Assembly: GCA_947458235.1 (NCBI GenBank) | Contig: CANGYP010000001.1 | Location: 1,248-65,247 of the forward strand | Source of the DNA: Alphaproteobacteria bacterium | GTDB taxonomy: Bacteria > Pseudomonadota > Alphaproteobacteria > JAJTHO01 > CANGYM01 | Length of the DNA stretch: 64,000 nucleotides | Direction: 5' to 3' | Shown here: in pieces, positions 35,428 to 54,691 of the stretch | Layout: each line of letters opens with the position of its first letter | Position numbering within the stretch: the stretch's first letter is position 1 | The notes under the pieces: model-generated | Told to the model about the DNA's origin: nothing | Seen by the model: the letters and a program-made list of their open reading frames with translations, nothing else | Database searches by the model: none | Made by a program: the position numbers and the translations under genes

Positions 35428-35795
35428 TATAGGACCTCCGGGGCCAAAGATATAATTTTCATGTAATTTTTCGAACGCAGCTCACGAGTCACAGGGCCAA
35501 AAATACGGGTTCCCACAGGCTCGCCCTGCTTGTTGATGATAACAACAGCATTGTTATCAAAACGAATCAGAGAATCATCGGGGCGACGCACACCAAAACG
35601 GGTCCGCACAACCAAAGCGCGATGCACATCCCCCTTTTTCACTTTCCCCCGAGGAATGGCGTCCTTAACCGACACCACAATCACATCCCCGATCTCAGCG
35701 GTTCTTTTTTTTGATCCGCCCAAAACCTTAACACACATAACAGTTTTGGCACCAGAGTTATCCGCAACGTCTAAACGTGTTTGCATCTGAATCAT
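35427..35795 (-). CDS. rplN: 50S ribosomal protein L14
   Basis: [17 protein letters not shown]. Confidence 0.92.
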
Positions 35796-36052
35796 ACAGA
35801 AACTCCTTGTACAGAGGCACCTGTATCATCTAACAGGACCCATGTTTTTCTCTTAGAAAAGGGACGGGACTCCACGATGGATACAACGTCGCCCTGACGG
35901 GAGCGGTTGGCTTCATCATGAGCCAAGAATTTTTTGGAACGCTTAATGTACTTTTTATACACAGGGTGCTTTACGGAACGCTCAACCAAAACACTGATGG
36001 TTTTGTCTTTAGCATCCTTCACAACAACACCTTGCATCACACGACGGGGCAT
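35792..36052 (-). CDS. rpsQ: 30S ribosomal protein S17
   Basis: [40 protein letters not shown]. Confidence 0.9.
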
Positions 36053-36064
36053 AACAATGATCCT

Positions 36065-36265
36065 TTAGGCAGGGTTATTCAACAGGGTCTTAATTTGGGC
36101 AATGCGACGACGCACAAAACGAAAACGGGTTGTGTTTTCCACGCCCCCGCTTTTCTTTTTAAAGCGCATACCCATCAAATCACGCTGACAATGATGCAGC
36201 ATATCGGTGAGTTCATCTTTGGTTTTGCCCCGCAACAAAGCGGCCTTTCGTTCCGACAATTTCAT
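36065..36265 (-). CDS. rpmC: 50S ribosomal protein L29
   Basis: LRGKTKDELTDMLHHCQRDLMGMRFKK. Confidence 0.85.
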   Translation of the reverse strand: MKLSERKAALLRGKTKDELTDMLHHCQRDLMGMRFKKKSGGVENTTRFRFVRRRIAQIKTLLNNPA

Positions 36266-36270
36266 AATGT

Positions 36271-36687
36271 TTACTCACATGGCAGACGTTTAACAAATTT
36301 TGACTGAATCGGCAACTTGGCATGAGCCAAAGCAAAAGCCTCACGGGCTTGCTCTTCCGATACACCCTCAATTTCAAAAAGAATGCGCCCCGGAGCTACA
36401 CGACAAGCCCAGAATTCTGGTGTTCCTTTTCCACTTCCCATACGCACTTCCGCAGGTTTGCGGGATACAGGCAAATCTGGGAACACACGAATCCAGAGCT
36501 TACCTGCACGACGCAGGTGACGGGTGATGGCACGACGGGCCGCCTCGATTTGGCGAGCCGTAATGCGATCAGCAGCTAAGGCTTTTAAACCAAACTGACC
36601 AAAATTCAAACGATCTCCAGCTTTGGTCTCGCCTTTGATGCGCCCTTTATGCGCTTTACGGTATTTTGTTTTCTTGGGGCTAAACAT
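36271..36687 (-). CDS. rplP: 50S ribosomal protein L16
   Basis: [19 protein letters not shown]. Confidence 0.92.
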
Positions 36688-36708
36688 GCCTAACTCCGTT
36701 GTGGTTAT

Positions 36709-37368
36709 CTATGCTGCGGTGCGCAGATCTTCGCGCTCGCCATCTTTGAGAATTTCACCTTTGTAAATCCAGACCTTAATACCAATAACGCCGTAGGTTG
36801 TCAAAGCCTCTGCTTCTCCATAGTCGATATCGGCACGCAGGGTGTGAAGGGGAACCCGACCTTCACGATACCATTCCATGCGAGCGATTTCCGCGCCCCC
36901 CAAACGGCCACTGCAGTTAATCCGAATGCCCTCAGCACCGAAACGCAGTGCCGACTGAACCACACGGCGCATAGCCCGACGAAAGGCCACTCGCTTTTCC
37001 AACTGAGAGGCCACGTTTTGAGCCACCAACTTGGCTTCGATTTCGGGCTTGCGAATTTCAACGATGTTGATCTGAACATCCCGCCCCAAAAACTTGGCTA
37101 AATCCTTGCGCAATAATTCAATGTCTGTCCCTTTTTTACCAATAATCAATCCAGGACGACCCGAATACAAGTTCACGATGGGCTTGTTGGCTGGACGCTC
37201 GATGACAATTTTACTGATATAAGCCGCTTTCAGGCGCTTCTCCAAATACTTCCGGATTTCAAGATCCTGCAACAGAGTTTCCTGATAAGACTTACCCGCA
37301 AACCAACGGGAATCCCAGTCCTTGTTGACCTTCAAACGGAACCCAATGGGGTTGACTTTCTGACCCAT
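36709..37368 (-). CDS. rpsC: 30S ribosomal protein S3
   Basis: [12 protein letters not shown]...KH domain. Confidence 0.92.
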
Positions 37369-37371
37369 AAC

Positions 37372-37716
37372 CTAAATCTCCTCTTCTGCCAAAATAACAG
37401 TAATACGACTGACAGGCTTTTCAATACGTGCGCCGCGACCACGAGCCCGCGCCCGAAAACGTTTCATGACCAAGCTTTTCCCCACAAACGCTTCTTTGAC
37501 ATACAAACGATCCACGTCCAGACCGTGATTGTTTTCGGCGTTGGCAATGGCAGAGTTCAAGGTTTTCAACACCACATCTGCCACGCGCTTTTGAGAAAAC
37601 GTCAGGATGTGAATGGCATCCTGAACATGCTTACGGCGAATGCTGCCCGCAACCACATTAAGTTTTTGGGGGCTGCTGCGCACAACAGTATTCATGGCTT
37701 GGGCAAAACGGGTCAT
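37372..37716 (-). CDS. rplV: 50S ribosomal protein L22
   Basis: Position in the S10 operon, L22-like sequence and 114-aa length. Confidence 0.88.
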
Positions 37717-37725
37717 ACAAACACC

Positions 37726-38004
37726 TTACTTCTTTTTCGCTTTTTTATCAGCACCGTGACCCAAAAAGGTCCGTGTAGGGGCAAATTCACCCAGCTTGTG
37801 GCCAATCATGTCTTCGTTCACCGTCACAGGCACAAATTTTTTGCCGTTATACACACCAAAAGTTAACCCCACAAAGTTAGGGAGAATGGTGGAGCGGCGT
37901 GACCAAGTTTTAATGATATCGCGGCGACCAGAAGAGGCCACTTTAGCTGCTTTATCAATTAAATAACCGTCAACAAACGGACCTTTCCAGATAGAACGGG
38001 GCAT
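37726..38004 (-). CDS. rpsS: 30S ribosomal protein S19
   Basis: [15 protein letters not shown]...[17 protein letters not shown]. Confidence 0.92.
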
Positions 38005-38016
38005 ATACAGTGTCCT

Positions 38017-38844
38017 TTATTTCTGATAGCGTCGTTTAACAATATATTTGGACGTGGCCTTGTTCCGGCGCGTCCTTTTGCCTTTGGTGGATTTTCCCCA
38101 TGGCGTCACGGGGTGACGACCACCAGATGTTTTCCCTTCACCACCACCGTGCGGGTGATCCACAGGGTTCATGGCCACCCCACGAACATGGGGGCGGCGT
38201 CCTTTCCAGCGATTCCGTCCCGCTTTACCCAAAACTTCGTTCTGGTGATCAGGGTTGGAGACCATCCCAATGGTCGCATAGCAACTGGCGGGGACAAGGC
38301 GCACCTCACCAGAGGCAAGACGCAGCTGGGCATATCCCTGATCCCGCGCGACCAATTGAACAGAGGCTCCTGCACTACGCGCCATCTGGCCGCCTTTGCC
38401 GGGCTTCATTTCCACATTGTGAACCACTGTCCCCAAGGGAATGTTGGCTAAAGGCAGAGCGTTCCCCACACGAATGTCAGCTTTTTCACCTGAAAGAACT
38501 TTATCACCAGCTTTTAATTTCTGGGGGGCCAAGATGTAGGCTTTCTCACCGTCCTCATAAACGATCAAGGCAATATAAGCTGTGCGGTTGGGGTCATACT
38601 CCAGACGCTCCACCGTTGCGACGACATCGTGCTTAGCGCGCTTGAAATCAACCTGACGATACAAACGCTTGTGACGGGGACCGATGTTGCGATTTGTGGC
38701 ACGCCCCAAATTATTACGGCCCCCTGTGGAGTGAAGACCAGACACCAAGCTTTTTTCAGGACGACCCTTCCACAAATCCGAAGATGTGGACAGAATCAAG
38801 CCACGCGTTCCTGGGGTAACGGGTTTATAGGCTTTTAAGGCCAT
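38017..38844 (-). CDS. rplB: 50S ribosomal protein L2
   Basis: [15 protein letters not shown]...GGGEGK. Confidence 0.92.
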
Positions 38845-38847
38845 GAT

Positions 38848-39171
38848 CTAGACTCCATCAAAAAAATTAAGGGTTTCACCGTCTTTCAGGGTGATAATGG
38901 CCTTTTTTGTAGCATTGCGGTGCCCAACCACGCCCTTGAACCGCTTTGTTTTGGCGGGCAGGCGAATGATGTTCACCTTTTCAACGGTCACGGAAAAGAC
39001 CTCTTTCATGGCTAACTTCACATCGTTTTTGGTGGCGGCGGGCAAAACCTCAAACACCACTTTGTTGCCGATTTCACCTTGCATCGTGGACTTTTCCGTC
39101 ACAATGGGGCGACGCAGGATGTCAAAAGAGCTGATTTTTCTTTTTTTCGTGGATAATAAACCTTGTTTCAT
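38848..39171 (-). CDS. rplW: 50S ribosomal protein L23
   Basis: Position between rplD and rplB, and sequence ILRRPIVTEKST. Confidence 0.88.
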   Translation of the reverse strand: MKQGLLSTKKRKISSFDILRRPIVTEKSTMQGEIGNKVVFEVLPAATKNDVKLAMKEVFSVTVEKVNIIRLPAKTKRFKGVVGHRNATKKAIITLKDGETLNFFDGV

Positions 39172-39794
39172 AACGCAAACCTCTGCTCGATAGCCTCTTT
39201 GGCGGCGGCCGTGATCACAACATGACGGGACTGAAGCAGACTGTAAACGTTCAGTCCCTCCAGCGCCAACAAACGAACATCTTTAAGGTTGCGCAAAGCC
39301 CTGACAAATGGAGCATCCATATCTGCCTGATTGACAATAAAAAGGGGCTTAACCAACCCAAGTTTTTTGGCCCAAGCGGCGGCATCCTTGGCTTTTTCAA
39401 ACGCCGGATACGCATCCACAATCACTAAGGATTGATCTATGCACTTTGATGACAGAGCATGTTTTAATCCCAAAACCCGAATTTTTTTGTTCAACGCATA
39501 CCCATGATCCCGAACTACAGGCCCGAAAATTGTGGCCCCACCGCGATACTGTGGGGAACGCAAAGAACCCTGACGGGCATTTCCTGTTCCCTTTTGTTTA
39601 TAGGGTTTTTTTGTGGTTCCCTGAATGTCGGAGATGCCTTTGGTTTTGTGACATCCTGAGCGGCGTTTATCTAACTGCCATTGCACCACCCGCGCCATAA
39701 TATCGGGGCGCAAAGGGGACAGAGCAAAAACATCATCCCGCAAAGCCACATCCGTGGCTTTTAAATCGGGTCCTGTAAGCAAGGCGTACTGCAT
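39168..39794 (-). CDS. rplD: 50S ribosomal protein L4
   Basis: Position between rplC and rplW, L4-like sequence and 208 aa. Confidence 0.88.
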   Translation of the reverse strand: MQYALLTGPDLKATDVALRDDVFALSPLRPDIMARVVQWQLDKRRSGCHKTKGISDIQGTTKKPYKQKGTGNARQGSLRSPQYRGGATIFGPVVRDHGYALNKKIRVLGLKHALSSKCIDQSLVIVDAYPAFEKAKDAAAWAKKLGLVKPLFIVNQADMDAPFVRALRNLKDVRLLALEGLNVYSLLQSRHVVITAAAKEAIEQRFAL

Positions 39795-39804
39795 AAAACG
39801 ACTC

Positions 39805-40581
39805 TTAACTTTCTAACGTATCACCAGATGTGTCACTCGGGGCGGCCTCAGGGGCAGCAGCGTTGGACTCAGACGAAGGGGCCTGAACATCCAAAGCGGG
39901 GGCAGGAGACGCCACAGAGCCAGGGAAAGGAAGATCCCGAAAGGGAGACTTCACCGCGTCCTGAATCAAAACAAAACTGTTTGTGGCCCCAGGAATGCTG
40001 CCTTTAACAAAGACCAAGCCGCGAGCGACATCGGTTTCTAAAATCTCTAAATTCTGTTGGGTGACGCGCACATCCCCCATATGACCAGCCATTTTTTTGC
40101 CCTTAAAGACCTTACCTGGGTCCTGACGTTGCCCTGTGGACCCGTGGGAACGGTGACTAATAGAAACCCCGTGGGACGCCCGCAAACCACCAAAATTGTG
40201 ACGCTTCATGGCACCAGCAAACCCTTTACCCACAGAGGTTCCGACAACATCAACCTTTTGACCCACAACGAAATGATCGGCTTGCAGGAGAGACCCCACA
40301 TCAAGGAAGGCCCCTGCCTCAACACGAAATTCGCGCACGATAGCCTTGGGGGAAAGATTGGCGTTGGCATACTGAACGCGCTGGGCTTTGTTGACACGGG
40401 AAGGGCGACGGCCCCCCGCGCCCAAAACAACCGCCGTATAACCATCACGGTCTTGGGTGCGCTGGCCAATAACCTGACACCCTTCTAAACTTAACACCGT
40501 CACTGCCGAAGACACACCGTCAACAGAAAAGCGACGCGTCATTCCCAGTTTTTTGGCGATTAAACCTGTACGCTTTGTCAT
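39805..40581 (-). CDS. rplC: 50S ribosomal protein L3 (with Ala/Pro/Ser-rich C-terminal extension)
   Basis: [18 protein letters not shown]... Confidence 0.9.
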
Positions 40582-40592
40582 AAAACCTCCCC

Positions 40593-40922
40593 TTAAGCCA
40601 CCGCGCCCATGGGCGTCAGCTTAATTTGCACATCAACACCAGAAGGCAGCTCCAACTTCATCAAAGCATCTACAGTCTGGGGAGTCGGACTTAGGATATC
40701 AATCAAACGCTTGTGGGTACGCATTTCGAACTGTTCCCGTGATTTTTTATTCACGTGGGGGGAGCGCAGCACCGTAAAGCGCTCAATACGGGTCGGCAAG
40801 GGAACAGGGCCGTGAAGCTTTGATCCCGTGCGCTTCACCGTATCGACAATTTGCTCTGCGGATTTATCCAAAATCCGGTGATCAAAGGCCCGAAGGTGCA
40901 CTCGAATGGTTTGTGCGTCCAT
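40593..40922 (-). CDS. rpsJ: 30S ribosomal protein S10
   Basis: [39 protein letters not shown]. Confidence 0.92.
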
Positions 40923-40951
40923 AGTTGATTCTCGTATCCACAGCGTTCACA

Positions 40952-40982
40952 GAAAAAAAGAGGCCGCATTATGCAGCCTCTT
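40952..40982 (-). terminator. Rho-independent terminator between tuf and rpsJ
   Basis: 7-bp GC-rich stem (AAGAGGC / GCCTCTT) with an 11-nt loop, followed on the minus strand by a T7 run. Read directly from the sequence. Confidence 0.6.
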
Positions 40983-41001
40983 TCGGGGTATGTAAAGACC
41001 T

Positions 41002-42177
41002 TTATTTAATAATCTTACTCACAACACCAGCACCAACGGTCCGACCACCCTCACGGATAGCAAAACGCAGACCTTCGTCCATAGCAATGGGGCTGATCAG
41101 TTCGATTTCCATTTCCACGTTGTCCCCAGGAATAACCATTTCCTTGCCTTCGGGCAATTTAATGGCACCTGTTACGTCCGTGGTACGGAAGTAAAACTGA
41201 GGGCGGTAGTTGGAGAAAAATGGGGTGTGACGACCACCTTCTTCTTTGCTAAGGATATAGCACTCACACTTAAAGGTGGTGTGGGGGGTAATGCTACCAG
41301 GCTTGGCCAGAACCTGACCACGCTCAACATCTTCCCGCTTGGTACCGCGAAGCAGAACACCCACGTTATCCCCAGCTTGACCTTGGTCAAGAAGCTTGCG
41401 GAACATTTCAACACCAGTAACGGTTGTTTTCTGGGTTTTGCTGATACCCACAATCTCAACTTCTTCACCCACCTTGACCACACCAGATTCAACACGGCCT
41501 GTCACCACAGTTCCACGACCAGAGATGGAGAACACATCCTCAATAGGCATCAAGAAGGGCTTGTCGATGGGACGAGAGGGGGTTGGAATGGCTTTGTCTA
41601 CAGCCGCCAGCAAATCACGGACTTTGTTTTCGCCGATTTCGGGGTTGCGACCTTCAAGGGCAGCCAAAGCAGAACCAGAAACGATGGGGATATTGTCGCC
41701 ATCAAAGCCATATTTGCTGAGTAATTCGCGGATTTCCATTTCCACCAGCTCAAGCAATTCAGGGTCATCCACCTGATCCACTTTGTTCAAAAAAACCACC
41801 AAGGCAGGAACACCCACCTGACGGGCCAGCAAGATGTGCTCCCGCGTTTGGGGCATGGGTCCATCGGCAGCGTTTACCACCAGAATCGCACCATCCATCT
41901 GTGCCGCACCTGTGATCATGTTTTTCACGTAATCCGCGTGTCCAGGACAATCCACATGGGCGTAGTGACGCTCGGCGGTTTCGTATTCCACGTGGGCGGT
42001 GTTAATCGTGATCCCACGGGCTTTTTCTTCGGGGGCCGCGTCAATCTGGGAGTAATCTCTGAACTCCCCGAAGTACTTTGTGATGGCCGCCGTCAGCGTC
42101 GTTTTTCCATGGTCAACGTGACCGATGGTGCCGATGTTAACGTGGGGTTTCGTCCGTTCAAATTTTGCTTTTGCCAT
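41002..42177 (-). CDS. tuf: Elongation factor Tu
   Basis: [13 protein letters not shown]...[26 protein letters not shown]. Confidence 0.95.
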
Positions 42178-42202
42178 GGTTTTTCCTACCTTTAGTTAGT
42201 CA

Positions 42203-44278
42203 TTAAGAATGTTTTGCTGCGATCTCTTCAGCGATCGCGTGGGGGACGGGCTCGTAATGATGAAAGACCATGGTGAATTGGGCACGGCCTTGGCTCATTG
42301 AGCGAAGGGTATTAACATATCCAAACATGTTTGACAAGGGGACCATCGCATTTATCACGCGGGCATTGCCCCGTTGATCCATGCCAGAAATTTGACCCCG
42401 ACGGGAATTCAGATCGCCGATGATATCCCCCATATAATCTTCGGGGGTTACCACCTCAACATTCATGATAGGCTCAAGGATTTGGCTTCCCGCTTTTCTC
42501 ATGCCCTCACGAAAGGCCGCACGAGCGGCAATTTCAAAAGCAAGCGTTGAGGAGTCCACATCGTGATAAGCCCCCTCTGTCAAAGTCACCTTGAAATCCA
42601 CTACGGGAAAGCCTGCGAGGGCCCCTGTGTCCTTGGCAGACATCAAGCCCTTTTCAACCCCCGGGATATATTCCTTGGGAATGGATCCCCCCACAACTTT
42701 GTTGACGAATTCATAGCCTCCACTGCGCTCCAGTGGCTCGAACGTCATAATGACACGGGCGAACTGTCCAGCACCACCAGATTGCTTCTTGTGGGTGTAG
42801 TCGATCTCAATTTTCTTGGAAATGGTCTCACGATAAGCCACCTGCGGGGCACCCACGTTGGCCTCCACTTTGAACTCGCGCTTCATGCGGTCAACGATGA
42901 TTTCCAAGTGAAGCTCTCCCATCCCCTTAATGACAGTCTGGCCAGATTCATGGTCAACAGAGACACGGAAGGAAGGGTCCTCGGTAGCCAAACGACCCAA
43001 AGCTACGGACATCTTTTCCTGATCGGCTTTGGTTTTGGGCTCAACAGCCACTTCGATCACAGGCTCGGGGAATTCCATGCGTTCAAGAACAATGGGATGT
43101 TTTTGATCGCAAAGGGTATCCCCCGTGGTGGTATCTTTCATGCCCACCAAGGCGATGATATCACCCGTATAGGCCTCTTTGATTTCCTCACGGGAATTGG
43201 CGTGCATCAGCAACATACGGCCGATACGCTCTCTCTTACCCTTTGTTGTGTTTTCAACATAAGAACCTGATTCAACTTTTCCAGAGTATACGCGCACAAA
43301 GGTCAAAGAGCCCACAAAAGGGTCCGTCATGATCTTAAACGCCAAACCAGAAAACGGTTCTGTGTCTGAGGGTTTACGCGAATCCGCATCATCTGAATCG
43401 GGCTTAAGACCTGCCGTGTCGCCAATATCCAAAGGAGAGGGCAAATAATACGTCACTGCATCCAACAGGGGCTGAACACCCTTATTTTTAAAAGCCGACC
43501 CACACAAAACGGGAACAAAGGCGCTCTTGATGGTACCGCGACGAATACAGGCCCGCAGAACATCGATAGATGGCTCTTCGCCAGCCAGATATTTCTCCAT
43601 GGCATCGTCGTCTTGTTCAACAGCCAGCTCAATCATTTTTTCCCGATATTCGGCGGCTTTGTCTTTATAGGCGGCGGAAATAGGACGCTCTTCAAATTTG
43701 GCCCCCAAGCTTTCTTCCAACCAGTGAATTTCAACATTTTTAATCAGGTCAACAACCCCAACAAAATCAGACTCAACCCCAATGGGCAACTGAACAACCA
43801 AGGGGACAGCCCCCAAGCGGTCCACCATCATATCGACACAGCGGAAAAAGTCTGCACCGATACGATCCATTTTATTGACAAAACACATCCGCGGCACGTT
43901 GTACTTATCGGCTTGCCGCCATACGGTTTCGGATTGGGGTTCAACACCCGCCACACTGTCAAAAACAGCCACAGCACCGTCCAGAACCCGCAGAGAACGC
44001 TCAACTTCAATGGTGAAATCCACGTGGCCGGGTGTGTCAATGATGTTAATGCGGTGGCCAGCCCAGTAACAGGTTGTGGCGGCGGAGGTGATGGTGATCC
44101 CACGCTCTTGCTCTTGCTCCATCCAGTCCATGGTAGCGTTGCCCTCGTGGACTTCACCGATGTTGTGCTGACGCCCTGTGTAAAATAAAATGCGTTCTGT
44201 TGTGGTGGTTTTCCCAGCATCAATGTGGGCCATGATGCCGATGTTGCGATACTGATCCAAAGGAGTTTGACGAGACAT
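42203..44278 (-). CDS. fusA: Elongation factor G
   Basis: [21 protein letters not shown]...[22 protein letters not shown]. 691 aa. Confidence 0.95.
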
Positions 44279-44373
44279 ACCAGAACACTAAAATCCATAA
44301 ACGATAAAGTCGTTCCTATGTAACGCTTATACTGGCGATTGCAAGTCTTTTTTTGTCTTTGTTATTGCCAGCA

Positions 44374-46263
44374 TCACGCCTTGGTGGCGACCACTCTCGC
44401 TTTGGGCAAGAATAAAGAGACCGTAGTGCCACGACCTTCCGCGCTTTGAATGTGCAGCTTACCCTGATGCATGTCCATAAGTTTTTGCACCAAGGGTAGG
44501 CCCAACCCCGTGCCTTCGTGCCGGCGGGCATAGGAATTATCAATTTGGGTGAACGGTTTCAGGGCTTTGTCTATGTCCTCTCCCCGCATGCCCACCCCAG
44601 TGTCAGTGCACGCAATCATCACGGGGAAATCATTTTCTGGATCATAGTGACAGGACAAAGTCACAGTACCTTTTTCATGGGTAAATTTTACGGCGTTAGA
44701 GAGAACATTCATCACCACCTGTTTCAAGGCCCGTTCATCGCCATAAATAATGGGCAGGGTGCCTGATATATCCTCAATTAACGAGATTTTTCCAGCCTCG
44801 GGCCGACCCCGAACAATCCTGATGGCAGATTTCAGAACGTTTTCTAGATTCATTTTGGATTCATATAAATGAAATTGACCAGCCTCAATTTTTGAGAGAT
44901 CCAAAATATCATTGATAATGCTTAGCAAATGATCCCCGCTTTCTTTAATGTCCAGCGTGTATTCCAAATACTTGTCATGCCCCATGGGGCCAAAGGTTTG
45001 GCTGTGCATGATGCTGGAAAACCCGATGATGGCATTGAGGGGGGTGCGGAGTTCATGGCTCATGTTCGCCAAAAATTCGGATTTTGATCGGCTGGCGGAT
45101 TCGGCTTGTTCTTTGGCCAAAATTAATTCACGTTCTTCTTGGCGGCGCTTGGTCACATCCCGCATAAAAGCACAATTAAACTCTTTATTTTTGTAAAATA
45201 AATAGTTTTCCGTAAATTCGATGATTGTTCTATGGCCATCGTTGTTGGCCATAATTTCCTCGGTCGTGCAAGCCCCTTGGGTTTTCAGCAAATTCCAATG
45301 ATCTCGCCATTGATCCAGACTATGAAAATCTCTCAGGCCATGAATGGTGCTGCGGAGCAAGTCCTCTTTGGGGCGATCCATCAATTGGCATGCCGCATCG
45401 TTAACATAGAGAATTTTTCCAAACGCATTGGTCCACATCACACCCTCTGATGCGCGATCCAAAACGAATTGTGTGATGCTCAGGGTTTCTTCGTACTGTT
45501 TGCGCTCGGTAATATCCTGCACAATGCCGTTAATAAACAAATCATCGGCGTTTACCTTAGATCCCATACCCGTTTGCAGGTGGACATAACGCAAATGGTG
45601 ATCCTGTGTTAACAGCGCATGGTCAATGGCCGTATTTTTGTTGTGCATCAAACTATCGTCAAAAAAGCTCTCCACAAGGGCTTTGTCAGCTTTGGGAACA
45701 AGGCGCATGTATTCCTCCAAGCTATAGGGACGCCGCTGGTGGGGATCCAAATCCAAAATGCGCTTGGCTTCTTCGGAAAAATAAAGGTTTTTCAGGGCGC
45801 GATCATAATACCAATACCCCAACTGCGCGATGCGCTGGGCCGTCATCCAGCGGGATTCCCCATCACGGAGTTTTTTTAGATTTTGATAGGCTCGAAAAAT
45901 GTACCGTATGCGATGCTGCAACACAATCCAGTTGATGGGTTTGGTGATAAAATCCGTAGCACCTGCATCGTAGCAAGCGTTGGCCATGTCCATATCCTGC
46001 ATCCCTGTGATCATGATAATGGGCACCTCTTCGCCAGTCCCGCCTTCGGCGCGGATGGCTTGACAGCATTCTATGCCGTTCATCACGGGCATCATAATAT
46101 CTAACAGAATGATAGAGGGATGTACGTTACGAAAGGCGGACAGAGCCTCCTCCCCATTGTCCACCGCAATGCATTTAAATCCCAGTTTTTCTAGAGATTT
46201 ACTCATTAACGCCCGTGACACCTCTTCGTCTTCGGCGATTAAAATCAAATGATCTCGATCCAT
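44374..46263 (-). CDS. Hybrid sensor histidine kinase with N-terminal receiver domain and PAS region (REC-PAS-HisKA-HATPase)
   Basis: REC is LILIAEDEE...ILLDIMMPVMNG...ITKP. H-box LANMSHELRTPLNAI, N-box NAVKFT, G1 DTGVGM and G2 GTGLGL are present. GC is patchily low. Confidence 0.8.
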   Translation of the reverse strand: MDRDHLILIAEDEEVSRALMSKSLEKLGFKCIAVDNGEEALSAFRNVHPSIILLDIMMPVMNGIECCQAIRAEGGTGEEVPIIMITGMQDMDMANACYDAGATDFITKPINWIVLQHRIRYIFRAYQNLKKLRDGESRWMTAQRIAQLGYWYYDRALKNLYFSEEAKRILDLDPHQRRPYSLEEYMRLVPKADKALVESFFDDSLMHNKNTAIDHALLTQDHHLRYVHLQTGMGSKVNADDLFINGIVQDITERKQYEETLSITQFVLDRASEGVMWTNAFGKILYVNDAACQLMDRPKEDLLRSTIHGLRDFHSLDQWRDHWNLLKTQGACTTEEIMANNDGHRTIIEFTENYLFYKNKEFNCAFMRDVTKRRQEERELILAKEQAESASRSKSEFLANMSHELRTPLNAIIGFSSIMHSQTFGPMGHDKYLEYTLDIKESGDHLLSIINDILDLSKIEAGQFHLYESKMNLENVLKSAIRIVRGRPEAGKISLIEDISGTLPIIYGDERALKQVVMNVLSNAVKFTHEKGTVTLSCHYDPENDFPVMIACTDTGVGMRGEDIDKALKPFTQIDNSYARRHEGTGLGLPLVQKLMDMHQGKLHIQSAEGRGTTVSLFLPKARVVATKA

Positions 46264-46426
46264 GGCTGTTCCCCGTCACGACCAAAGATAATCTCAAGTG
46301 GTAAAAAAGACCATAATGCAATATGCAGAAGCGTTGGGAACTCATGCTTTCTCGCTACTCTCCCTCACGCATTGTGAGCAAGAGGTACATTTTTTCACAC
46401 CGATGGCTTTGTTATGCTAAAGAATC

Positions 46427-48730
46427 ATGAGCAACAGGGAAAGGACGGATACCATGACCGATACAATGATGCCTGAGAGGATCACGACCCCCTCAGTGTG
46501 CACGGGATTAAACCCCGAGCAAGCCGCCGCCGTTCAAGCCGTGGATGGACCCGTTTTGGTTCTGGCGGGGGCGGGGACGGGGAAAACCCGCGTTTTAACC
46601 ACACGCTTGGCGCATTTGATTCAGGATTATGGGGTGTTTGCCTCCCGCATTTTGGCCGTGACCTTTACCAACAAGGCCGCCACCGAAATGCGCCACCGCA
46701 TTCATGCCATGGTGGGGGATGCCGTGGGGGGGTTGTGGCTGGGGACTTTTCATGCTCTGTGCGCCCGCATTTTGCGCCAGCACATTGACAAATTGGGGTA
46801 CACGGAAAACTTCACCATTTTGGATACCGATGATCAACTGCGGATTATCAAAGGCCTTCTGAAAGATTACGGACTGGATGAAAAAGCCTGCCCCCCCCGC
46901 ATCGTCAGCAGCGTGATTCAACGCTGGAAAGATCGGGGCTGGCTGCCCGCCGATGTCCCCGTTAGTGAGCATAAAAAAGAGCTGCGCGGCCGCGCTCTGC
47001 GCTTTTATCAGGATTATCAGGCCCGTTTGAAAAGCCTGAATGCCTTGGATTTTGGGGATATGATCCTGCTGTGTCTGGTGTTGTTTCGGGACTTTCCTGA
47101 GGTCCTGCGCCATTACCAACAACAATTCCGCTATATTCTGGTGGATGAGTATCAAGACACCAACGTATCCCAATATCTGTGGCTGCGCTTGCTGGCCCAA
47201 GGGCACGGGAATCTGTGCTGTGTGGGGGATGATGATCAATCCATTTATGGGTGGCGCGGGGCCGAGGTGGACAATATCCTGCGCTTTGACCAAGATTTCC
47301 CTGGGGCCACTGTCATTAAACTGGAGCAAAATTATCGCTCTACCCAAACCATTTTAACCGCCGCATCCCATTTGATTCAAAACAATCAGGGGCGTTTGGG
47401 CAAAACCCTGTGGACGGATGATCAAACGGGGGAAAAAATCGCCGTGCATCACGTCTGGGATTCGGCGGAGGAAGCCCGCCTGCTGGCCAAAACCATCGAA
47501 AAACGCGCTGCAGGGGGCCAGACCTTGGGGCAAATGGCCATGTTGGTGCGGGCCAGTTTTCAAACACGGGAATTGGAAGAAGCCCTGATGAACGCCGCCA
47601 TTCCCTATCAAGTCATTGGGGGCCTGCGATTTTATGATCGGCAGGAAATACGGGATGCCCTCGCCTATTTACGCTTAACCACCCAAATTGACGATGATCT
47701 GGCGCTGGATCGGATTATTAACCTGCCCAAACGGGGCATTGGCTCCACCACCGTGCAAACACTGGCGGCGGAGGCCGAACGTGCGGGCGTATCCATTTAC
47801 CGCCTGCTGCTGGAAAAAAACCAAACAGGGGAATTGCTGGGGCGCGGCGGAAAACCCCTGCAACAGTTTGTTGTGATGATCGAGGGCTGGCGGAATCAAC
47901 TGGCCAGACGCTCCCCCGCCGAAATGATGGCCATGATTCTGGATGAATCCGGCTATACCGCCATGTGGAAAGAGACCAAAACCCCTGACGCCGAAGCCCG
48001 TCTGGACAACCTGAAAGAGTTAATCGCGGCCCTGCATACCTTTGACACCCTCAACAGTTTTCTGGAACATGTCATGCTGGTGGCGGACACCGCCGAAACA
48101 GGGGATGGGGATAAAGTGTCCATCATGACCCTGCACGCCGCCAAGGGTTTAGAATTCGACATGGTGTTTCTGCCCGGGTGGGAGGACGGCATTTTCCCCA
48201 ACCAACGCGCCATTGATGAATCGGGGGACAAGGGGGTGGAGGAAGAGCGTCGTCTGGCCTATGTCGGCCTGACCCGGGCCCGCAAGCAGGCCATGATCAC
48301 CTATGCCAACAGCCGCCGAAAATTCAACACGTGGCAGTACAACCCCCCGTCACGCTTTTTGCAGGAACTGCCCACCGCCCACATTCGCCATCAAAACCAC
48401 AACAAAGCTGCTGGTTCCCCCGCCGCCTTTGGCCAATACGGCGGCGGCCACCATGCCAAAACGCTGGATGTTTGGGACGAATCCCAAGAGGTTATGCCCA
48501 TTCTGCCCACCTACACCGCCTCCCGCGCCCAAGGCATGCGACAGTCCTTTGTGGCCCAAAAACGGCCATCCTTCCCTCAAAATGCGTTTTTTGTGGGCCA
48601 AACTGTATCCCACACCACCTACGGCGAGGGCACCGTCGCCGCTCTGTTGGGACAGGATAAGGTGGAGGTGACATTTGCCGAAGACGGTCTGACCCGCACG
48701 GTTATGGGGAAATGGCTGGAGGGGGGATAA
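46427..48730 (+). CDS. uvrD: ATP-dependent DNA helicase UvrD/Rep family
   Basis: LNPEQAAAVQAVDGPVLVLAGAGTGKTRVLTTR with helicase motifs DEYQDTN and the Q-motif. 767 aa. Confidence 0.88.
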   Translation: MSNRERTDTMTDTMMPERITTPSVCTGLNPEQAAAVQAVDGPVLVLAGAGTGKTRVLTTRLAHLIQDYGVFASRILAVTFTNKAATEMRHRIHAMVGDAVGGLWLGTFHALCARILRQHIDKLGYTENFTILDTDDQLRIIKGLLKDYGLDEKACPPRIVSSVIQRWKDRGWLPADVPVSEHKKELRGRALRFYQDYQARLKSLNALDFGDMILLCLVLFRDFPEVLRHYQQQFRYILVDEYQDTNVSQYLWLRLLAQGHGNLCCVGDDDQSIYGWRGAEVDNILRFDQDFPGATVIKLEQNYRSTQTILTAASHLIQNNQGRLGKTLWTDDQTGEKIAVHHVWDSAEEARLLAKTIEKRAAGGQTLGQMAMLVRASFQTRELEEALMNAAIPYQVIGGLRFYDRQEIRDALAYLRLTTQIDDDLALDRIINLPKRGIGSTTVQTLAAEAERAGVSIYRLLLEKNQTGELLGRGGKPLQQFVVMIEGWRNQLARRSPAEMMAMILDESGYTAMWKETKTPDAEARLDNLKELIAALHTFDTLNSFLEHVMLVADTAETGDGDKVSIMTLHAAKGLEFDMVFLPGWEDGIFPNQRAIDESGDKGVEEERRLAYVGLTRARKQAMITYANSRRKFNTWQYNPPSRFLQELPTAHIRHQNHNKAAGSPAAFGQYGGGHHAKTLDVWDESQEVMPILPTYTASRAQGMRQSFVAQKRPSFPQNAFFVGQTVSHTTYGEGTVAALLGQDKVEVTFAEDGLTRTVMGKWLEGG

Positions 48731-48904
48731 AGGATGATCCATGCCCGAAGCATAAGGGTCGCAGGGCCGCATCGACAATCTGCCCCTTGTACGCCACCAA
48801 CACACGCCTCCGTGATTGGGACATGGGCACAACACACATATCCCTCTTCTCTCACCTAGGGATTTATGAGATAATACACCCTGATGATTTTTCAGGAATA
48901 AGCC

Positions 48905-50440
48905 ATGAATGATACCCTTGTGATTTTTGATACAACGCTCAGGGATGGGGAACAATCGCCTGGGGCGTCTATGACCTTGGGGGAAAAGATGCGTATTGCG
49001 CTATCCTTAGAGGCCATGGGGGTGGATATTATCGAAGCTGGCTTTCCCGCTGCCAGTGCTGGCGATTTCGAGGCCGTGTCCACCATCGCCCAAAGCCTGA
49101 AAACCAGCCGCGTTGCCGGTCTGGCACGGGCCAGACCGTCGGACATTGAATCCGCAGGAGCGGCCCTGCGCGGGGCCACCTGTCCCACACGAATTCATAC
49201 CTTTTTGGCCACCAGCCCCCTGCATATGAAACACAAATTAAACATGACCCCCGATCAGGTGTTATCGGCCATCACGGCCAGTGTGACGCTGGCGCGGTCC
49301 TTGGTGGAGGATGTGGAATGGTCCGCCGAGGATGCCGTCCGCAGCGAGCGTGATTTTTTGTTCCGCGCTGTGGAAACTGCCATTAAAGCTGGCGCCCGCA
49401 CCATCAACATCCCCGATACTGTGGGGTATGCCATGCCGATGGAGTATGGGGATCTCATCGCGGCCATCAAAAACACGGTGCCCAACATCGATCTGGCGGT
49501 GATCTCCACCCATTGTCACAACGATTTGGGGCTGGCGGTGGCCAACAGTCTGGCTGGTGTTCAAAACGGGGCGCGGCAGGTGGAATGCACCATCAACGGT
49601 CTGGGCGAGCGAGCGGGCAATGCGGCAATGGAAGAAATTGTCATGGCCATCAAAACCCGCCCTGACATTCTGCCCTATCGCACCAACATTGACACCACTC
49701 ATATTATGGGGGTTTCCCGCTTGGTGTCTGGTGTTACGGGGTTTCTGGTGCAACCCAACAAGGCCATTGTGGGGGCCAACGCCTTTGCCCATGAATCGGG
49801 CATTCATCAGGATGGGATGCTGAAACATGCCCAAACCTATGAAATTATGACGCCAGAATCTGTGGGATTGTCGCGGTCATCTCTGGTCATGGGGAAACAT
49901 TCGGGACGGGCGGCCTTGCGGGATAAGCTTACCGCGCTGGGCTACCGGTTGTCGGATGAGGAACTGACGGAGGCTTTCACCCGCTTTAAAGCCATTGCCG
50001 ATAAGAAAAAACAGATTTTCGACGAAGACCTGATGGCTCTGGTGGATACCCAGATGGGGCAGGCGGATGAGGCCATTCGTTTACAGAGTCTGCACGTTAC
50101 CTGCGGCACCACGGATCGTCCTGATGTGCGTTTGGCCCTGTCCATCAACGGCCACATTCGGGAAACCCAGAGCACAGGCACGGGCCCCGTGGATGCTACC
50201 TTTCGGGCCATTGGGCAACTGGTACCGCATCAAGCGATCCTGCAACTGTATCAGGTTCACGCCGTCACTCAAGGTACCGATGCACAGGCTGAAGTCACCG
50301 TACGCCTAGAACACAACGGCACCACCGCCCATGGATCTGGGGCCAACATCGACACGCTGGCGGCCAGTGCCGAGGCCTATTTGCAGGCCCTGAACAAACT
50401 GCAGGCCAAAATCCAGCGGATTGGCTGCTTGGCGGGATAG
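48905..50440 (+). CDS. leuA: 2-isopropylmalate synthase
   Basis: IFDTTLRDGEQSPGASM, HCHNDLGLAVANSLAGV and a C-terminal LeuA dimerisation/regulatory domain. 511 aa. Confidence 0.88.
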   Translation: MNDTLVIFDTTLRDGEQSPGASMTLGEKMRIALSLEAMGVDIIEAGFPAASAGDFEAVSTIAQSLKTSRVAGLARARPSDIESAGAALRGATCPTRIHTFLATSPLHMKHKLNMTPDQVLSAITASVTLARSLVEDVEWSAEDAVRSERDFLFRAVETAIKAGARTINIPDTVGYAMPMEYGDLIAAIKNTVPNIDLAVISTHCHNDLGLAVANSLAGVQNGARQVECTINGLGERAGNAAMEEIVMAIKTRPDILPYRTNIDTTHIMGVSRLVSGVTGFLVQPNKAIVGANAFAHESGIHQDGMLKHAQTYEIMTPESVGLSRSSLVMGKHSGRAALRDKLTALGYRLSDEELTEAFTRFKAIADKKKQIFDEDLMALVDTQMGQADEAIRLQSLHVTCGTTDRPDVRLALSINGHIRETQSTGTGPVDATFRAIGQLVPHQAILQLYQVHAVTQGTDAQAEVTVRLEHNGTTAHGSGANIDTLAASAEAYLQALNKLQAKIQRIGCLAG

Positions 50441-50496
50441 GGGGAGATGATGGACTTATCTTTCCTCATTGACGCTCTGACACAGAGGCTCCCAAA

Positions 50497-50814
50497 ATGA
50501 CCCCTCCCGCTGTGGCCTTGTCCCCCGATCAAAAAGCCATTGTGCAGGCCATTTTAACCGAACATTTACCCCCCGAAAGCCAAGTGTGGGTGTTCGGCAG
50601 TCGCAGCACGGGCAAGAATCGTCCCTATTCCGATTTGGATTTGGCCGTGAAGGCTCCGCAGCGGTTGCCTTTGCCCCTGTGCGCTACGCTGGCGAGCGCG
50701 TTTGAAGAGAGCCTTCTGCCCTTTACCGTTGATATTGTGGATATGAACACCGTCAAAGAGCCCATGAAAAGTCATATTGATCAAAATGGTATTCCTTGGA
50801 TAGGGGCAAGTTGA
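50497..50814 (+). CDS. Minimal nucleotidyltransferase (MNT) domain protein, solitary (no HEPN partner adjacent)
   Basis: VWVFGSRSTGKNRPYSDLDLAV is the GS...D.D Pol-beta-type NTase motif. 105 aa. Confidence 0.65.
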   Translation: MTPPAVALSPDQKAIVQAILTEHLPPESQVWVFGSRSTGKNRPYSDLDLAVKAPQRLPLPLCATLASAFEESLLPFTVDIVDMNTVKEPMKSHIDQNGIPWIGAS

Positions 50815-50878
50815 AGCCCAATGGACTCATGGACTTGGGGGCTAGGCGTGGAAAGGGACGTTTTGATCGAACATCACC

Positions 50879-52849
50879 TTATCCCCTGCGCCATCCCCAC
50901 AGCAACAAAGCCCCCATCAGGGCAGCGAGGACGGGGGGCGTCCATGGCCATACTTCGCCTTGGCCCATGGTGATGGCCGAGGGACGATCAAAGATCAAGG
51001 TTTGGGATGATAAACGCTCTGACAATCCCTGATCAAAGGTGATGTTGAGGGGGGCGCTGGGATCATCACGATATCGACCGCTGTTGTGTTTGGCCAACAG
51101 GGCGCCCGAGGGGGGAACGGGGGTCCACTCCGCCGGCGGTCCCATGTCAAAGGGGATAGGAATCAACGTTTGTTGAACCCGAACGGCCCACAGACCCGCA
51201 CGGTTTAGGGGGGTGCGATACACCCCATCCCCCTCTGGGGTCCAAGGTTGCCATAATCCCTCTGGACGATAAAGGGATACGGTACCCTTCAGCGTTCCTC
51301 TGGGGGTGCAGGTCAATGTGGCCTTATCTTGTTGGCAGGTCATGGGGGGGGCCTCTAAATCGGGCTCCCGCAATAACCAGTGCATCAAACGGCGCATCAT
51401 GGGGTTAAAGGGGGGTGGTTCTTCCCCTTGAGGGCGGCGCCATGTCCATACATCATCCGTGGCCACCCATGCCATGCGTCCATGTTGCGGGGTGTCGGGC
51501 CAGATACTCAACACAGGGATTTTTTCGGGGGTTTCCAGCAGGGCCTCTGCCTCTGCTGGTAATATCGCTGGCAGGTATCCGCGCAGTTGTGGAAAGGTCT
51601 TGCCCAAAAACGGCTGGGTGATGGGGTGATCCTGCCCCAAACGGGGGGTGATGGGGGCATCCTGATAGCCTTGGGGGGATAGGGTTAAACGTAACATATC
51701 CTGCAAAGCTACCAGCAAACTGTCGTTTTTTGCGCCTTCGGGCCCCGTCATGATCAGAAACGCGCCGCCTTTTTGAATAAAAGCCCGCAGCCCCTGCAGG
51801 TGAATGGGCTGTAACAATCCCAAATTGGCGTAACGATCCATGACAATGACATCAAAATCATGGATGCGGTTTAAAAACAGCTCATCCACAGGAAAGGGTA
51901 TCAGGGCCATTTCATCTGGCGGCGTGAAATCCACGCTGTCCATGCGGCGCAAAATAGAAAAATGGACCAGATCCATGTTGGGGTCTTGTTTAAACAAACT
52001 CCGAAAGGCCCGTGTGGAGGGATGCGAGGATCCCGAAACCATCATCACCCGCCACCGATCCCGAAACACCGTCAGGGTGAAAATGGCGGCATTGTTTTGC
52101 AGTGTCGCTTCCTTATCCAGCGGCGGCGTAGCCAAAAGATAGGGGGTGCGCCCAGGGCGATCGGTATTGAGGGGGATTTGGGTTTTTTCCCCATTGCGTA
52201 CCCGATACGTAACCTGCTGATCACCGTGGTACAGATTCAGGGGAATCTCGGACCCCTCGGGCTGTGTGGTGTCCCGCACCGTAACGGACAGGGCAAAGGG
52301 CTTGCCCACCAATTGATAGGATGAGGATTTCTCCAAAACCACCGAACGATCTGGCGCATTGCGAAAGGCGCTGAGGACGTGGATGGGTACCGTTGCCCGA
52401 AAGGTCGATAAATCCGCTTTGGCATCATGCCACAGGGTGTCACTGATAATCACCACACCGGCCAAACGATCTTGCGGCACGCTTTGCAGGGCGGCTTTTA
52501 GGGGGGGCAGGACCCTCGTGCCTTGATCCGTCTGGCTCAAGGGAAAGGATTGCAACGTGGCTTTCTCCCCCACGGCATTTTTCAGGGTTTTCAGCCACAG
52601 GGCTTGGGCCTGTGTATCCGCGCTGGCCGTTTGATCCTGCAACACCACAATGGTTTTGGGGGACGCTTTGGGGGCAGGTTTTAACAGGGTCACCTGAGAA
52701 AGCATGGCCACCAACACAGCCACCGCCCCCAAGCGGGCCCAGCTTTTTCGGCCCCACAGCACCACCAGTGCGCTGAGCATCACCACCACCACACTCAGGG
52801 CCACCGAGCCCTCCTCCCATGACAGGGTATATCCCCCCAGATCAAGCAT
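50879..52849 (-). CDS. Large membrane-anchored protein with N-terminal double-TM domain and C-terminal TM (TIGR02226/DUF4159-like), function unknown
   Basis: Two hydrophobic helices at the N-terminus (VALSVVVVMLSALVVLW and LGAVAVLVAMLSQVTLL), a roughly 550-aa soluble region and a C-terminal helix ALMGALLLWGW. Overlaps the response-regulator gene stop by a few nt. Confidence 0.55.
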   Translation of the reverse strand: MLDLGGYTLSWEEGSVALSVVVVMLSALVVLWGRKSWARLGAVAVLVAMLSQVTLLKPAPKASPKTIVVLQDQTASADTQAQALWLKTLKNAVGEKATLQSFPLSQTDQGTRVLPPLKAALQSVPQDRLAGVVIISDTLWHDAKADLSTFRATVPIHVLSAFRNAPDRSVVLEKSSSYQLVGKPFALSVTVRDTTQPEGSEIPLNLYHGDQQVTYRVRNGEKTQIPLNTDRPGRTPYLLATPPLDKEATLQNNAAIFTLTVFRDRWRVMMVSGSSHPSTRAFRSLFKQDPNMDLVHFSILRRMDSVDFTPPDEMALIPFPVDELFLNRIHDFDVIVMDRYANLGLLQPIHLQGLRAFIQKGGAFLIMTGPEGAKNDSLLVALQDMLRLTLSPQGYQDAPITPRLGQDHPITQPFLGKTFPQLRGYLPAILPAEAEALLETPEKIPVLSIWPDTPQHGRMAWVATDDVWTWRRPQGEEPPPFNPMMRRLMHWLLREPDLEAPPMTCQQDKATLTCTPRGTLKGTVSLYRPEGLWQPWTPEGDGVYRTPLNRAGLWAVRVQQTLIPIPFDMGPPAEWTPVPPSGALLAKHNSGRYRDDPSAPLNITFDQGLSERLSSQTLIFDRPSAITMGQGEVWPWTPPVLAALMGALLLWGWRRG

Positions 52850-53549
52850 GATCGGCCACCAGACGATATCCCTGATGACGCACAGTTTGCAGGTATTGTG
52901 GCGTTTTGGGATGAGGTTCAATTTTTTGGCGCAAACGATTCAGATGAACATCTATGGTACGGGATAGGCTGGTTTCCTCTAACCCCAAGGCCGTTTGCAG
53001 GGCCAGACGGGACACGGGTTGCCCGCCCGCCCGCACCAAAACATCCATCAAGGTTTTTTCTGCGGGCGTTAAGGCAATGGGCCCCCCATCCATCCCCAGC
53101 AGGGTTTGCATGGTGCTTTGATAGGTTAACCGTCCCAAACGCAGAGCAGGGGAGGGGGCTTCCTCCAGACTATTGCCCGCCCGCTTTAAAATATTTTGAA
53201 TGCGCAACAACAGCTCCTCAGGCACAAAGGGCTTGGTCAAATAATCATCGGCCCCCAACGACAATCCCGCAATGCGATCGGCAGATTCCCCCTTGGCCGT
53301 TAACATCAACACTGGCAGCATATTGTCTTGTCCCCGAAGCTGCGCCAGAAAATCCCGCCCCGTTTGATAGGGCATCATGTCATCCAAAATGATCAAGTGA
53401 CAACGATATTCAGGGGCCTTCAGGATCGCATCGGCCTCCGTCGGGTGGGCGGCGGTGCTGACGGTATAGCCATGCTGGCGCAAAAACCGCTGCAACAACA
53501 GGCGGATGCGCTGATCATCATCCACAATCAACAGGTGAAAAGACGACAT
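52842..53549 (-). CDS. OmpR-family two-component response regulator (REC plus winged helix)
   Basis: HLLIVDDDQRIRLLLQRFL...LIILDDMMP...LMLTAKGE...DDYLTKPF, then a C-terminal wHTH YLQTVRHQGYRL. Confidence 0.85.
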   Translation of the reverse strand: MSSFHLLIVDDDQRIRLLLQRFLRQHGYTVSTAAHPTEADAILKAPEYRCHLIILDDMMPYQTGRDFLAQLRGQDNMLPVLMLTAKGESADRIAGLSLGADDYLTKPFVPEELLLRIQNILKRAGNSLEEAPSPALRLGRLTYQSTMQTLLGMDGGPIALTPAEKTLMDVLVRAGGQPVSRLALQTALGLEETSLSRTIDVHLNRLRQKIEPHPKTPQYLQTVRHQGYRLVADHA

Positions 53550-53609
53550 TGTGCGAAAGATTAAACGTTTCTTAAAAGTTCAGGTCTATTCTGAAACAAT
53601 ACCCCCGCG

Positions 53610-54095
53610 TTGGGGATACAGATTTCAAAAAACAGCATAGAAAAAAACCGCGAAAGGTGCCAGATGAAAGATCGGTTAAAACTTGCAATCCTTGAAGCGG
53701 AAACCTTAGGTGATGCGCCGTTCGTTCAAACTCTGCGTTTGATTGCCACAGTGCTTGAGGATCAGGGCTTTGCCACGGAAGATATCGAAAAAAACAGCTA
53801 CAGCGTGATTCGCCAAATCATGGCTTATCACCAAGAGCGTCTGGCCATTTTTCAGGCCAGTGGATCCCACAAAAAAGCCCAAGCTGAAAAATCTCTGATT
53901 CAAAAATTGGAAAGCCTGCTACCCAAAACGTACTCTGAAGACAGTTTGCACGCTATGATTCACGAAAAAATCACCGCATGCGGTGCCAGATCGATTCGGG
54001 ATTTAAAAACCGTCATGGCTCTGCTCCGTCAGGATAGCCGTGGCGAGATCAATTACGAACATGCCAAAGGTATCGCCATTAGTGTGTTGCGATAG
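53610..54095 (+). CDS. GatB/YqeY domain protein
   Basis: C-terminal KITACGARSIRDLKTVMALLRQDSRGEINYEHAKGIAISVL resembles the YqeY tail. 161 aa. Confidence 0.6.
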   Translation: MGIQISKNSIEKNRERCQMKDRLKLAILEAETLGDAPFVQTLRLIATVLEDQGFATEDIEKNSYSVIRQIMAYHQERLAIFQASGSHKKAQAEKSLIQKLESLLPKTYSEDSLHAMIHEKITACGARSIRDLKTVMALLRQDSRGEINYEHAKGIAISVLR

Positions 54096-54160
54096 CATGG
54101 TGTTTTGGATGGAGGATCCCCGAAAGATACCCTCAAACACCTTGTGTGTGTGTCACGCCC

Positions 54161-54691
54161 TCACAAAAACGATAACCCTTGATGCAAACCCGTAATCCAT
54201 ACATCCGCCGCTGTGTGCTCTGGCCTTTCGGGGCACAGTAACAGTTTTGTGCCGATGCCTGCGGCGTGGGCGGCCTGCATGTCAGTTTCTCGGTCCCCAA
54301 TCATCACAGAGGCCTCTGGTGAAAGGGCGTATTTTTCTATACCTTTTAGGATCATGCCTGGATGGGGCTTTCGGTCAAAGGATTCTTTTTTGTACACGCC
54401 CAATCCATGCTCTGGATGATCGGGACAAAAATAGGTTTCGTGCAACACAATCCCCCTGTCCTGAAACTGCTGCTGCATCCAGTGGGTTAAATGATGAAAT
54501 TGATCTTCGGTATAATACCCCCGTCCGATACCCGCTTGGTTGGTGACAACAATTAAAAAATACCCCAAGGTCTGGGCGGTCTGGCACAGATCAAAAATAC
54601 CATCAACAAACACAATCTGATCAGGGCGATGGGCGTAATTGATCTCTTGGTTAATCACCCCGTCACGATCCAAAAACAACGCCCGATTCAT
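54161..54691 (-). CDS. gmhB: D-glycero-D-manno-heptose 1,7-bisphosphate phosphatase / HAD-IIIA histidinol-phosphatase-like
   Basis: ALFLDRDGVIN with later conserved HAD motifs and a Cys-rich zinc loop. 176 aa. Confidence 0.7.
   Translation of the reverse strand: MNRALFLDRDGVINQEINYAHRPDQIVFVDGIFDLCQTAQTLGYFLIVVTNQAGIGRGYYTEDQFHHLTHWMQQQFQDRGIVLHETYFCPDHPEHGLGVYKKESFDRKPHPGMILKGIEKYALSPEASVMIGDRETDMQAAHAAGIGTKLLLCPERPEHTAADVWITGLHQGLSFL

Follow-up and report, generated by a model that had tools for sequence, protein, structure and literature searches.

The gene order rpsL-rpsG-fusA is among the most conserved in bacteria, and in the canonical str operon it is followed by tuf. In E. coli, feedback by S7 on the str mRNA also lowers the synthesis of EF-G via translational coupling. 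For Rickettsia, Syvanen and co-workers reportedly described in 1996 a 'chimeric' elongation-factor arrangement in which rpsL-rpsG-fusA is separated from tuf-rpsJ. EF-G genes may also be found away from rpsL-rpsG: in the portion of Margus et al. (2011) drawn on here, only two genomes with a single EF-G are recorded as having the EF-G gene outside the str operon (PMC3150367).

The window, which is the whole 64-kb stretch of DNA analysed here, contains an unbroken array fusA-tuf-rpsJ...rplO on one strand (minus) and in the standard order. The gene fusA (42203-44278) encodes a canonical EF-G of 691 amino acids that contained all five EF-G domains (Pfam) and scored 1129.7 bits against the TIGR00484 equivalog (cut-off 659.4); its scores against the EF-G2 models of NCBIfam were below their cut-offs. 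As in the str operon, fusA is followed by tuf (41002-42177; EF-Tu, 391 amino acids, Pfam), with 25 nt between the two genes. The gene rpsJ (S10; 40593-40922, ORF and Pfam) begins the S10 and spc ribosomal-protein genes, which extend to rplO (31603-40922) as identified from the ORFs, the Pfam labels in two contigs of the same species (L001 and L013) and, for rplO, the match to TIGR01071. At the usual place of secY after rplO, we found devB- and devC-like genes of an ABC exporter (29120-31272, minus strand; NCBIfam TIGR02971 and TIGR01185).

On the 5' side, the sequence from 44279 to 44373 forms a spacer of exactly 95 bp between the ATG of fusA and the stop codon of a gene on the same strand (44374-46263, minus). 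This gene encodes a cytoplasmic kinase of 629 amino acids with REC, PAS, HisKA and HATPase_c domains (ORF list and Pfam), as the initial annotation of this DNA had described. Further upstream are a divergent gene for a UvrD/PcrA-like helicase, then leuA, a nucleotidyltransferase gene, a gene for a 680-amino-acid protein and a gene for an OmpR-type regulator. Thus, rpsL and rpsG do not lie immediately 5' of fusA on the same strand in the window. Indeed, tblastn with S12, S7 and SecY of E. coli returned no credible match in the 64-kb window (best E = 0.07). The annotation had stated that fusA lacks rpsL-rpsG upstream, that these genes must be located elsewhere and that the superoperon is cut at both ends. 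All three statements were supported: neither the window nor any of more than 30 related loci contained S12 or S7 genes, a divergent helicase gene lies past the kinase gene, and rplO is followed by the exporter genes with no secY in the window. No Rfam family reached its gathering threshold in the 64-kb window, none was found in the 95-bp spacer at E up to 1, and none of the r-protein leader RNAs of Rfam was detected for the S10 and spc genes of the window. The 64-kb window also contains no tRNA genes.

The EF-G of the window is 77-79% identical to the EF-G of Rhodospirillales-like Alphaproteobacteria, and it shares 91-100% identity with a compact set of proteins that come from lake metagenomes and from MAGs labelled 'Alphaproteobacteria bacterium'. 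The contigs of this clade, which encode close variants of EF-G, EF-Tu and S10, all have the order fusA-tuf-rpsJ...rplO with no rpsL-rpsG upstream. When S12 and S7 of a relative were used as tblastn queries, no match was found in any clade locus, and in look-ups of the S12 and S7 clusters from ten relatives, none of the known clade contigs carried a member. The break between rpsG and fusA is common to the whole clade of uncultured freshwater Alphaproteobacteria and is not confined to this contig. Three kinds of upstream neighbour of fusA occur in the clade. The kinase gene is the neighbour in the window's species (the window, L001, L002 and L013). In an abundant sister group (21 loci) the neighbour is the gene of a DAO-type oxidoreductase in the order ybaB-recR-DAO, and a metagenome scan with the promoter-like pattern described below also returned two contigs of this type. 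In a lineage whose EF-G is 91% identical (L003), antisense tRNA genes, Leu-taa and Gly-tcc, lie upstream of fusA. These two genes, tRNA-Leu(taa) and tRNA-Gly(tcc), occupy positions 9672-9844 of L003 and are encoded on the other strand; some 80 nt separate them from the promoter-like block downstream, and a 70-amino-acid ORF called at the same site is probably spurious.

The kinase type and the DAO type co-occur in one lake sample (ERZ28613002). By blastn they share 88% nucleotide identity in the ribosomal block and only 76% in a flanking shared block; thus the two types represent distinct organisms. The sister-type neighbours of fusA (rimM...DAO, secY...rpsK) were not found elsewhere in the window. 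On one sister contig (L114, 1-4424), secY-adk-rpsM-rpsK-rpoA is found in inverted orientation on the upstream side of ybaB-recR-DAO-fusA, at a distance of 2.2 kb. What follows rplO also varies in the clade: it is the gene of an M48 peptidase, an SBF transporter or an acetyltransferase, or bamE or devB.

To see how unusual the break is, we compared 80 EF-G loci of other species among the matches listed in a scan of species-representative genomes, mostly from Alphaproteobacteria and with several other phyla included; the source lineage of the window was not among the matches listed. In all 79 of the listed loci with enough upstream sequence, rpsG stands directly before fusA and rpsL before rpsG, and the rpsG-fusA junction is short in every one of them (about 10-100 nt). 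The relative with 79% identity (L011) retains rpoB-rpoC-(ccdBA)-rpsL-rpsG-(208-aa ORF)-fusA-tuf-rpsJ, and so the clade's own stem branch is where rpsG and fusA became separated. Junctions of this region are already loosened in the relative. In the region 7674-9992 of L011, a ccdB/ccdA toxin-antitoxin pair lies between rpoC and rpsL, and an ORF of 208 amino acids with no Pfam match lies between rpsG and fusA. The arrangement in the window departs strongly from a chance expectation; it is a genuine and rare exception, of a kind that has already been recorded.

Comparison with the sister lineages by blastn delimited a conserved cassette of 12.8 kb (31593-44355, minus strand) that contains a promoter-like block, fusA, tuf, and the S10 and spc genes to rplO. 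A DAO-type contig (L012) is 87.7% identical to the window over 44355-31593, and the homology of the 91% lineage (L003) begins at 44359. The 3' border at 31593 lies 10 nt past the rplO stop codon. On the 5' side, homology to the DAO type picks up again only at 54176, in a block of HAD-HemY-HEM4-acpP-fabF. The segment between the cassette and this shared HemY-HAD block (44356-54175, from the blastn gaps and the gene tables) is specific to the window's species. It carries the genes of the kinase, the uvrD/pcrA-like helicase, leuA, the nucleotidyltransferase, the 680-amino-acid protein, the OmpR-type regulator and YqeY; in the sister lineages its place is taken by rimM-bolA-bamE-ispA-ybaB-recR-DAO. 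In one sister genome only (L112, 1205-2266), a defence-like gene with a SIR2_2 domain lies between HAD and rimM.

The species-specific segment does not have the features of a mobile element or a genomic island. Repeats at the borders of 44356-54175 were only short and at chance level, no mobile-element genes were found between 44 and 54 kb (Pfam and gene tables), and the GC content of the segment is within the range of the window. Elsewhere in the window, a lone gene for a type IV secretion coupling protein (TraG/VirD4-like; 20689-22737, minus strand) lies amid housekeeping genes, and no other conjugation genes were seen nearby. The nucleotidyltransferase of the segment (50497-50814, plus strand) is a Polbeta-type protein of 105 amino acids, MNT-like, with no obvious HEPN partner adjoining. 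The gene order of the clade is fluid in general. In the window lpxC (3010-3948) and ftsZ (17517-19160) are 13 kb apart and do not belong to a dcw cluster; shikimate kinase and the adjoining 203-amino-acid gene (3945-5080) are about 40 kb from fusA in the window and about 6 kb from it in L003.

At the 5' edge of the cassette we found a promoter-like block of 36 nt (44319-44354, minus strand) with the exact pattern AAAAAAAGACTTGCAAT-N12-CGTTACA, delimited by comparison within the clade. The shared stretch opens with 36 nt that read AAAAAAA(G/C)ACTTGCAAT-N12-CGTTACA. Parts of this block are an A-tract that is UP-element-like (44346-44354), a -35-like TTGCAA (44339-44344) and, after a spacer of 16 nt, a -10-like TACATA (44317-44322), all on the minus strand. 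The exact pattern was present in the window and in 27 clade loci, with three different upstream contexts, and in none of the other loci compared. In all carriers the block lies 39-78 nt before the ATG of fusA, and the window has a single copy. Four variants of the block occur, and they differ from one another exclusively within the 12-nt spacer. When the window is compared with the 91% lineage, 23 of the 24 non-spacer positions agree but only 4 of the 12 spacer positions do; the spacer is equally long in both, and the two have diverged in the leader that follows the block. Thus, across diverged relatives the hexamers and the spacer length are kept and the sequence of the spacer and the leader drifts, as at a sigma-70 promoter. 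Because the hexamers are kept, the spacer length is fixed and the spacer sequence is free, the block has the pattern of a promoter, and this comparison suggests that it is the promoter of fusA.

The initial annotation had proposed that fusA-tuf needs its own promoter in the short spacer, and the retention of the 36-nt block in all clade members, whatever lies upstream, supports this proposal on comparative grounds. The search for a sigma-70 promoter in 44279-44373 that it had suggested came out negative: a strict scan for -35 and -10 hexamers of the E. coli consensus with a spacing of 16-18 nt called no site on the minus strand. The strict scan misses the block because TACATA is without the final T. 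The sequence TTGCAA-N16-TACATA matches the E. coli sigma-70 consensus at 4 of 6 and 3 of 6 positions. When we scanned the regions upstream of all window genes with the loose pattern TTGNNN-N15-18-TANNNW, no recurring consensus of the lineage emerged, and neither the fusA-tuf nor the tuf-rpsJ interval contained a similar site. The block resembles alphaproteobacterial RpoD promoters, though imperfectly. The RpoD consensus of Caulobacter has the boxes TTGaCgS and GCtANAWC (PMC8144410), and GTTACATA of the block matches GCtANAWC at 6 of 8 positions. The RpoD promoter query of S. meliloti is CTTGAC-N17-CTATAT (PMC2573895), and CTTGCA-N16-TTACAT of the block matches it at 8 of 12 positions. Both of these promoter types and the block have a CTTG-type -35 element.

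In the DAO type, the DAO ORF (L006, 8977-9962; L012, 6912-7861) has its TAG stop codon within the spacer of the block, so that gene and promoter-like block overlap by about 28 nt. This is as expected of a rearrangement that brought foreign DNA up to a promoter already in place. We also considered whether the block is an old rpsL promoter that was left behind. Compared with the regions upstream of rpsL in 34 Alphaproteobacteria, the block matched at best 10-14 of 23 positions, and random windows reach 16; this origin was rejected, as the matches upstream of rpsL are within the background.

The kinase encoded upstream of fusA has the Pfam domains Response_reg (residues 7-119), PAS (267-369), HisKA (393-462) and HATPase_c (508-622). 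The residues D55, K108, H403 of the H-box and N523, and the G-boxes DTGVGM and GTGLGL, are invariant in orthologues with 48-89% identity. The kinase, which is conserved in the clade, therefore retains intact phospho-acceptor residues (Asp and His) as well as intact N and G boxes, as in a kinase of the REC/PAS/HisKA/HATPase_c type. None of the named kinase equivalogs of NCBIfam (HrmK, PdhS, DivJ, BarA and others) was matched at its cut-off, the best scores being 258 for HrmK (cut-off 725), 241 for PdhS (2000) and 217 for DivJ (1000). A second kinase-like protein with a receiver domain is encoded at 8144-10021 (minus strand; 625 amino acids), with Response_reg and HATPase_c matches and no recognisable HisKA. 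At 50879-53549 (minus strand), the 680-amino-acid ORF, which has no Pfam or NCBIfam match, abuts the OmpR-type response regulator (52842-53549) and might be an unrecognised sensor partner of this regulator.

The annotation had placed the kinase gene at the leader position of the str operon. We add that nothing in particular ties the kinase to fusA, as its orthologues occupy four neighbourhoods in four lineages. The orthologues in related lineages are 89, 79, 54 and 48% identical. One (L102) is located between a SIMPL gene and mnmA, another (L103) between gapR and HAD-dapD, and a third (L101) between a glycosyltransferase gene and clpX, on a 359-kb contig that also carries fusA some 45 kb away; an orthologue is also found on the L011 contig. 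Only in the window's species does the kinase gene adjoin fusA. Since the orthologues sit in differing neighbourhoods, the adjacency is an accident of rearrangement in one species and reflects no functional pairing.

Could the kinase gene and fusA nevertheless form one functional transcription unit, with a kinase promoter that drives or regulates fusA-tuf? The two genes share a strand and are separated by only 95 bp, and no convincing terminator was found after the kinase gene: one weak hairpin lies within the coding end and is no more than shuffled sequences give, with a fold z-score of -0.99. Because a convincing terminator is lacking, some read-through from the kinase gene into fusA is possible. 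However, the adjacency is limited to one species and the orthologues adjoin mnmA, gapR/HAD, clpX and others in related lineages; where the kinase gene is located elsewhere, fusA follows the DAO gene or the antisense tRNA genes, and the conserved block stays attached to fusA and does not accompany the kinase gene. We consider a shared functional unit unlikely. If the kinase gene had inserted into a str operon that was intact apart from it, rpsL-rpsG would be found directly past the kinase gene; the shared strand is the only observation in favour of such an insertion. This possibility was raised by the initial annotation as a check on the break, and it was refuted: the next gene is the divergent UvrD/PcrA-like helicase gene, followed by leuA and others, and there is no S12 or S7 gene in the 19.7 kb of the window upstream of fusA. 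The chance that the kinase interrupts an intact operon is practically nil.

EF-G paralogues are described as common in bacteria in the consulted part of PMC3150367, and our analysis covers the window and the clade loci, so that fusA-tuf of the window might be a second copy, with a canonical rpsL-rpsG-fusA(-tuf) operon elsewhere in the genome. The evidence speaks against it, as the gene product is an EF-G equivalog well over the cut-off and well above the EF-G2 models, and fusA heads tuf and the only S10/spc cluster seen. In addition, an identical EF-Tu protein occurs on 7 contigs, all in the fusA-tuf-rpsJ context, and the EF-Tu match counts per lineage gave no hint of a second copy. We therefore regard a second copy as quite improbable, slightly more so than a joint kinase-fusA unit. 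The contig comes from a MAG, and a mis-assembled junction would be a trivial explanation of the gene order. Yet identical or 98%-identical junctions are present in the assemblies ENA ERZ28613002, ENA ERZ27263728 and Logan ERR3761228, and more than 25 contigs from sister lineages show the break as well. As the kinase-fusA junction recurs in three independent assemblies from other samples (L001, L002 and L013), a chimeric contig is ruled out, and we put the likelihood of a mis-assembled junction close to zero.

Taken together, the results favour, with a probability of roughly three in four, a clade-wide split of the str operon from which a promoter-fusA...rplO cassette survived and in which the kinase is a bystander. 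We propose that chromosomal rearrangements in the clade cut the ancestral rpoBC-str-S10-spc-alpha cluster, and that the 12.8-kb cassette, which begins with fusA, continues with tuf and rpsJ and ends with rplO, survived as a unit while the DNA flanking it would have been reshuffled repeatedly. Its 5' edge would be a dedicated sigma-70-like promoter composed of the A-rich tract, TTGCAA, the 16-nt spacer and TACATA, with a predicted transcription start near 44310. The transcript probably spans the cassette, because no comparable promoter-like site occurs between fusA, tuf and rpsJ. In the window's species a rearrangement would then have put an ordinary, conserved orphan REC-PAS kinase gene 95 bp upstream of fusA, where it may at most add some read-through transcription. 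The genes rpsL-rpsG would be expressed from another locus, and in that case the synthesis of EF-G and EF-Tu would no longer be physically coupled to that of S12 and S7. The detachment of fusA would likewise remove any coupling between S7 and EF-G. In the part of PMC3616713 drawn on here, the majority of r-protein regulatory RNAs of the E. coli type are reported as restricted to Gammaproteobacteria, and the loss of S7 coupling may for this reason cost the lineage little.

It is also conceivable, as a tentative extension, that the clade has dismantled the transcription/translation gene supercluster, elsewhere universally conserved, into independently mobile pieces, with a self-sufficient promoter-fusA...rplO cassette whose borders are recurrent breakpoints. 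If so, the clade would be a natural experiment on why the contiguity of the operon and the S7-linked co-expression of EF-G are otherwise kept. The fixed cuts between rpsG and fusA and between rplO and secY in the clade show that natural populations can do without the linkage. For an uncultured lineage, a candidate promoter of a major translation operon is also obtained, with clear limits. These observations are of use for annotation and for studies of operon evolution, and they indicate no new mechanism or system: the clade is a new example of a rare, documented exception, produced by a fairly ordinary rearrangement.

Compared with the canonical str operon, the window likewise has fusA-tuf-rpsJ...rplO and an orthodox EF-G of type I, but it has no rpsL-rpsG upstream and no secY...rpoA downstream, and in the clade the place of the short rpsG-fusA junction is taken by a promoter-like block dedicated to fusA. 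In Rickettsia, the str/S10 region of an alphaproteobacterium is likewise said to be broken by intrachromosomal rearrangement; there the cut is between fusA and tuf, whereas in the clade described here rpsG and fusA are the genes that are parted, and fusA and tuf remain together. The break-up of the supercluster in Proteobacteria, as outlined in the part of Brandis et al. (2019) consulted (PMC6735719), likewise involves rearrangements or insertions that separate contiguous operons. The cases given there are cuts between operons, while those found here are within str (rpsG|fusA) and within spc (rplO|secY). There is also a likeness to the rare genomes of Margus et al. (2011), in which, in the portion of that work used here (PMC3150367), the only EF-G is outside the str operon and an EF-G I is likewise detached from rpsL-rpsG. 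Unlike the cases in that portion, the detachment described here is fixed clade-wide, tuf and the S10 and spc genes remain attached to fusA, and a promoter-like block can be delimited.
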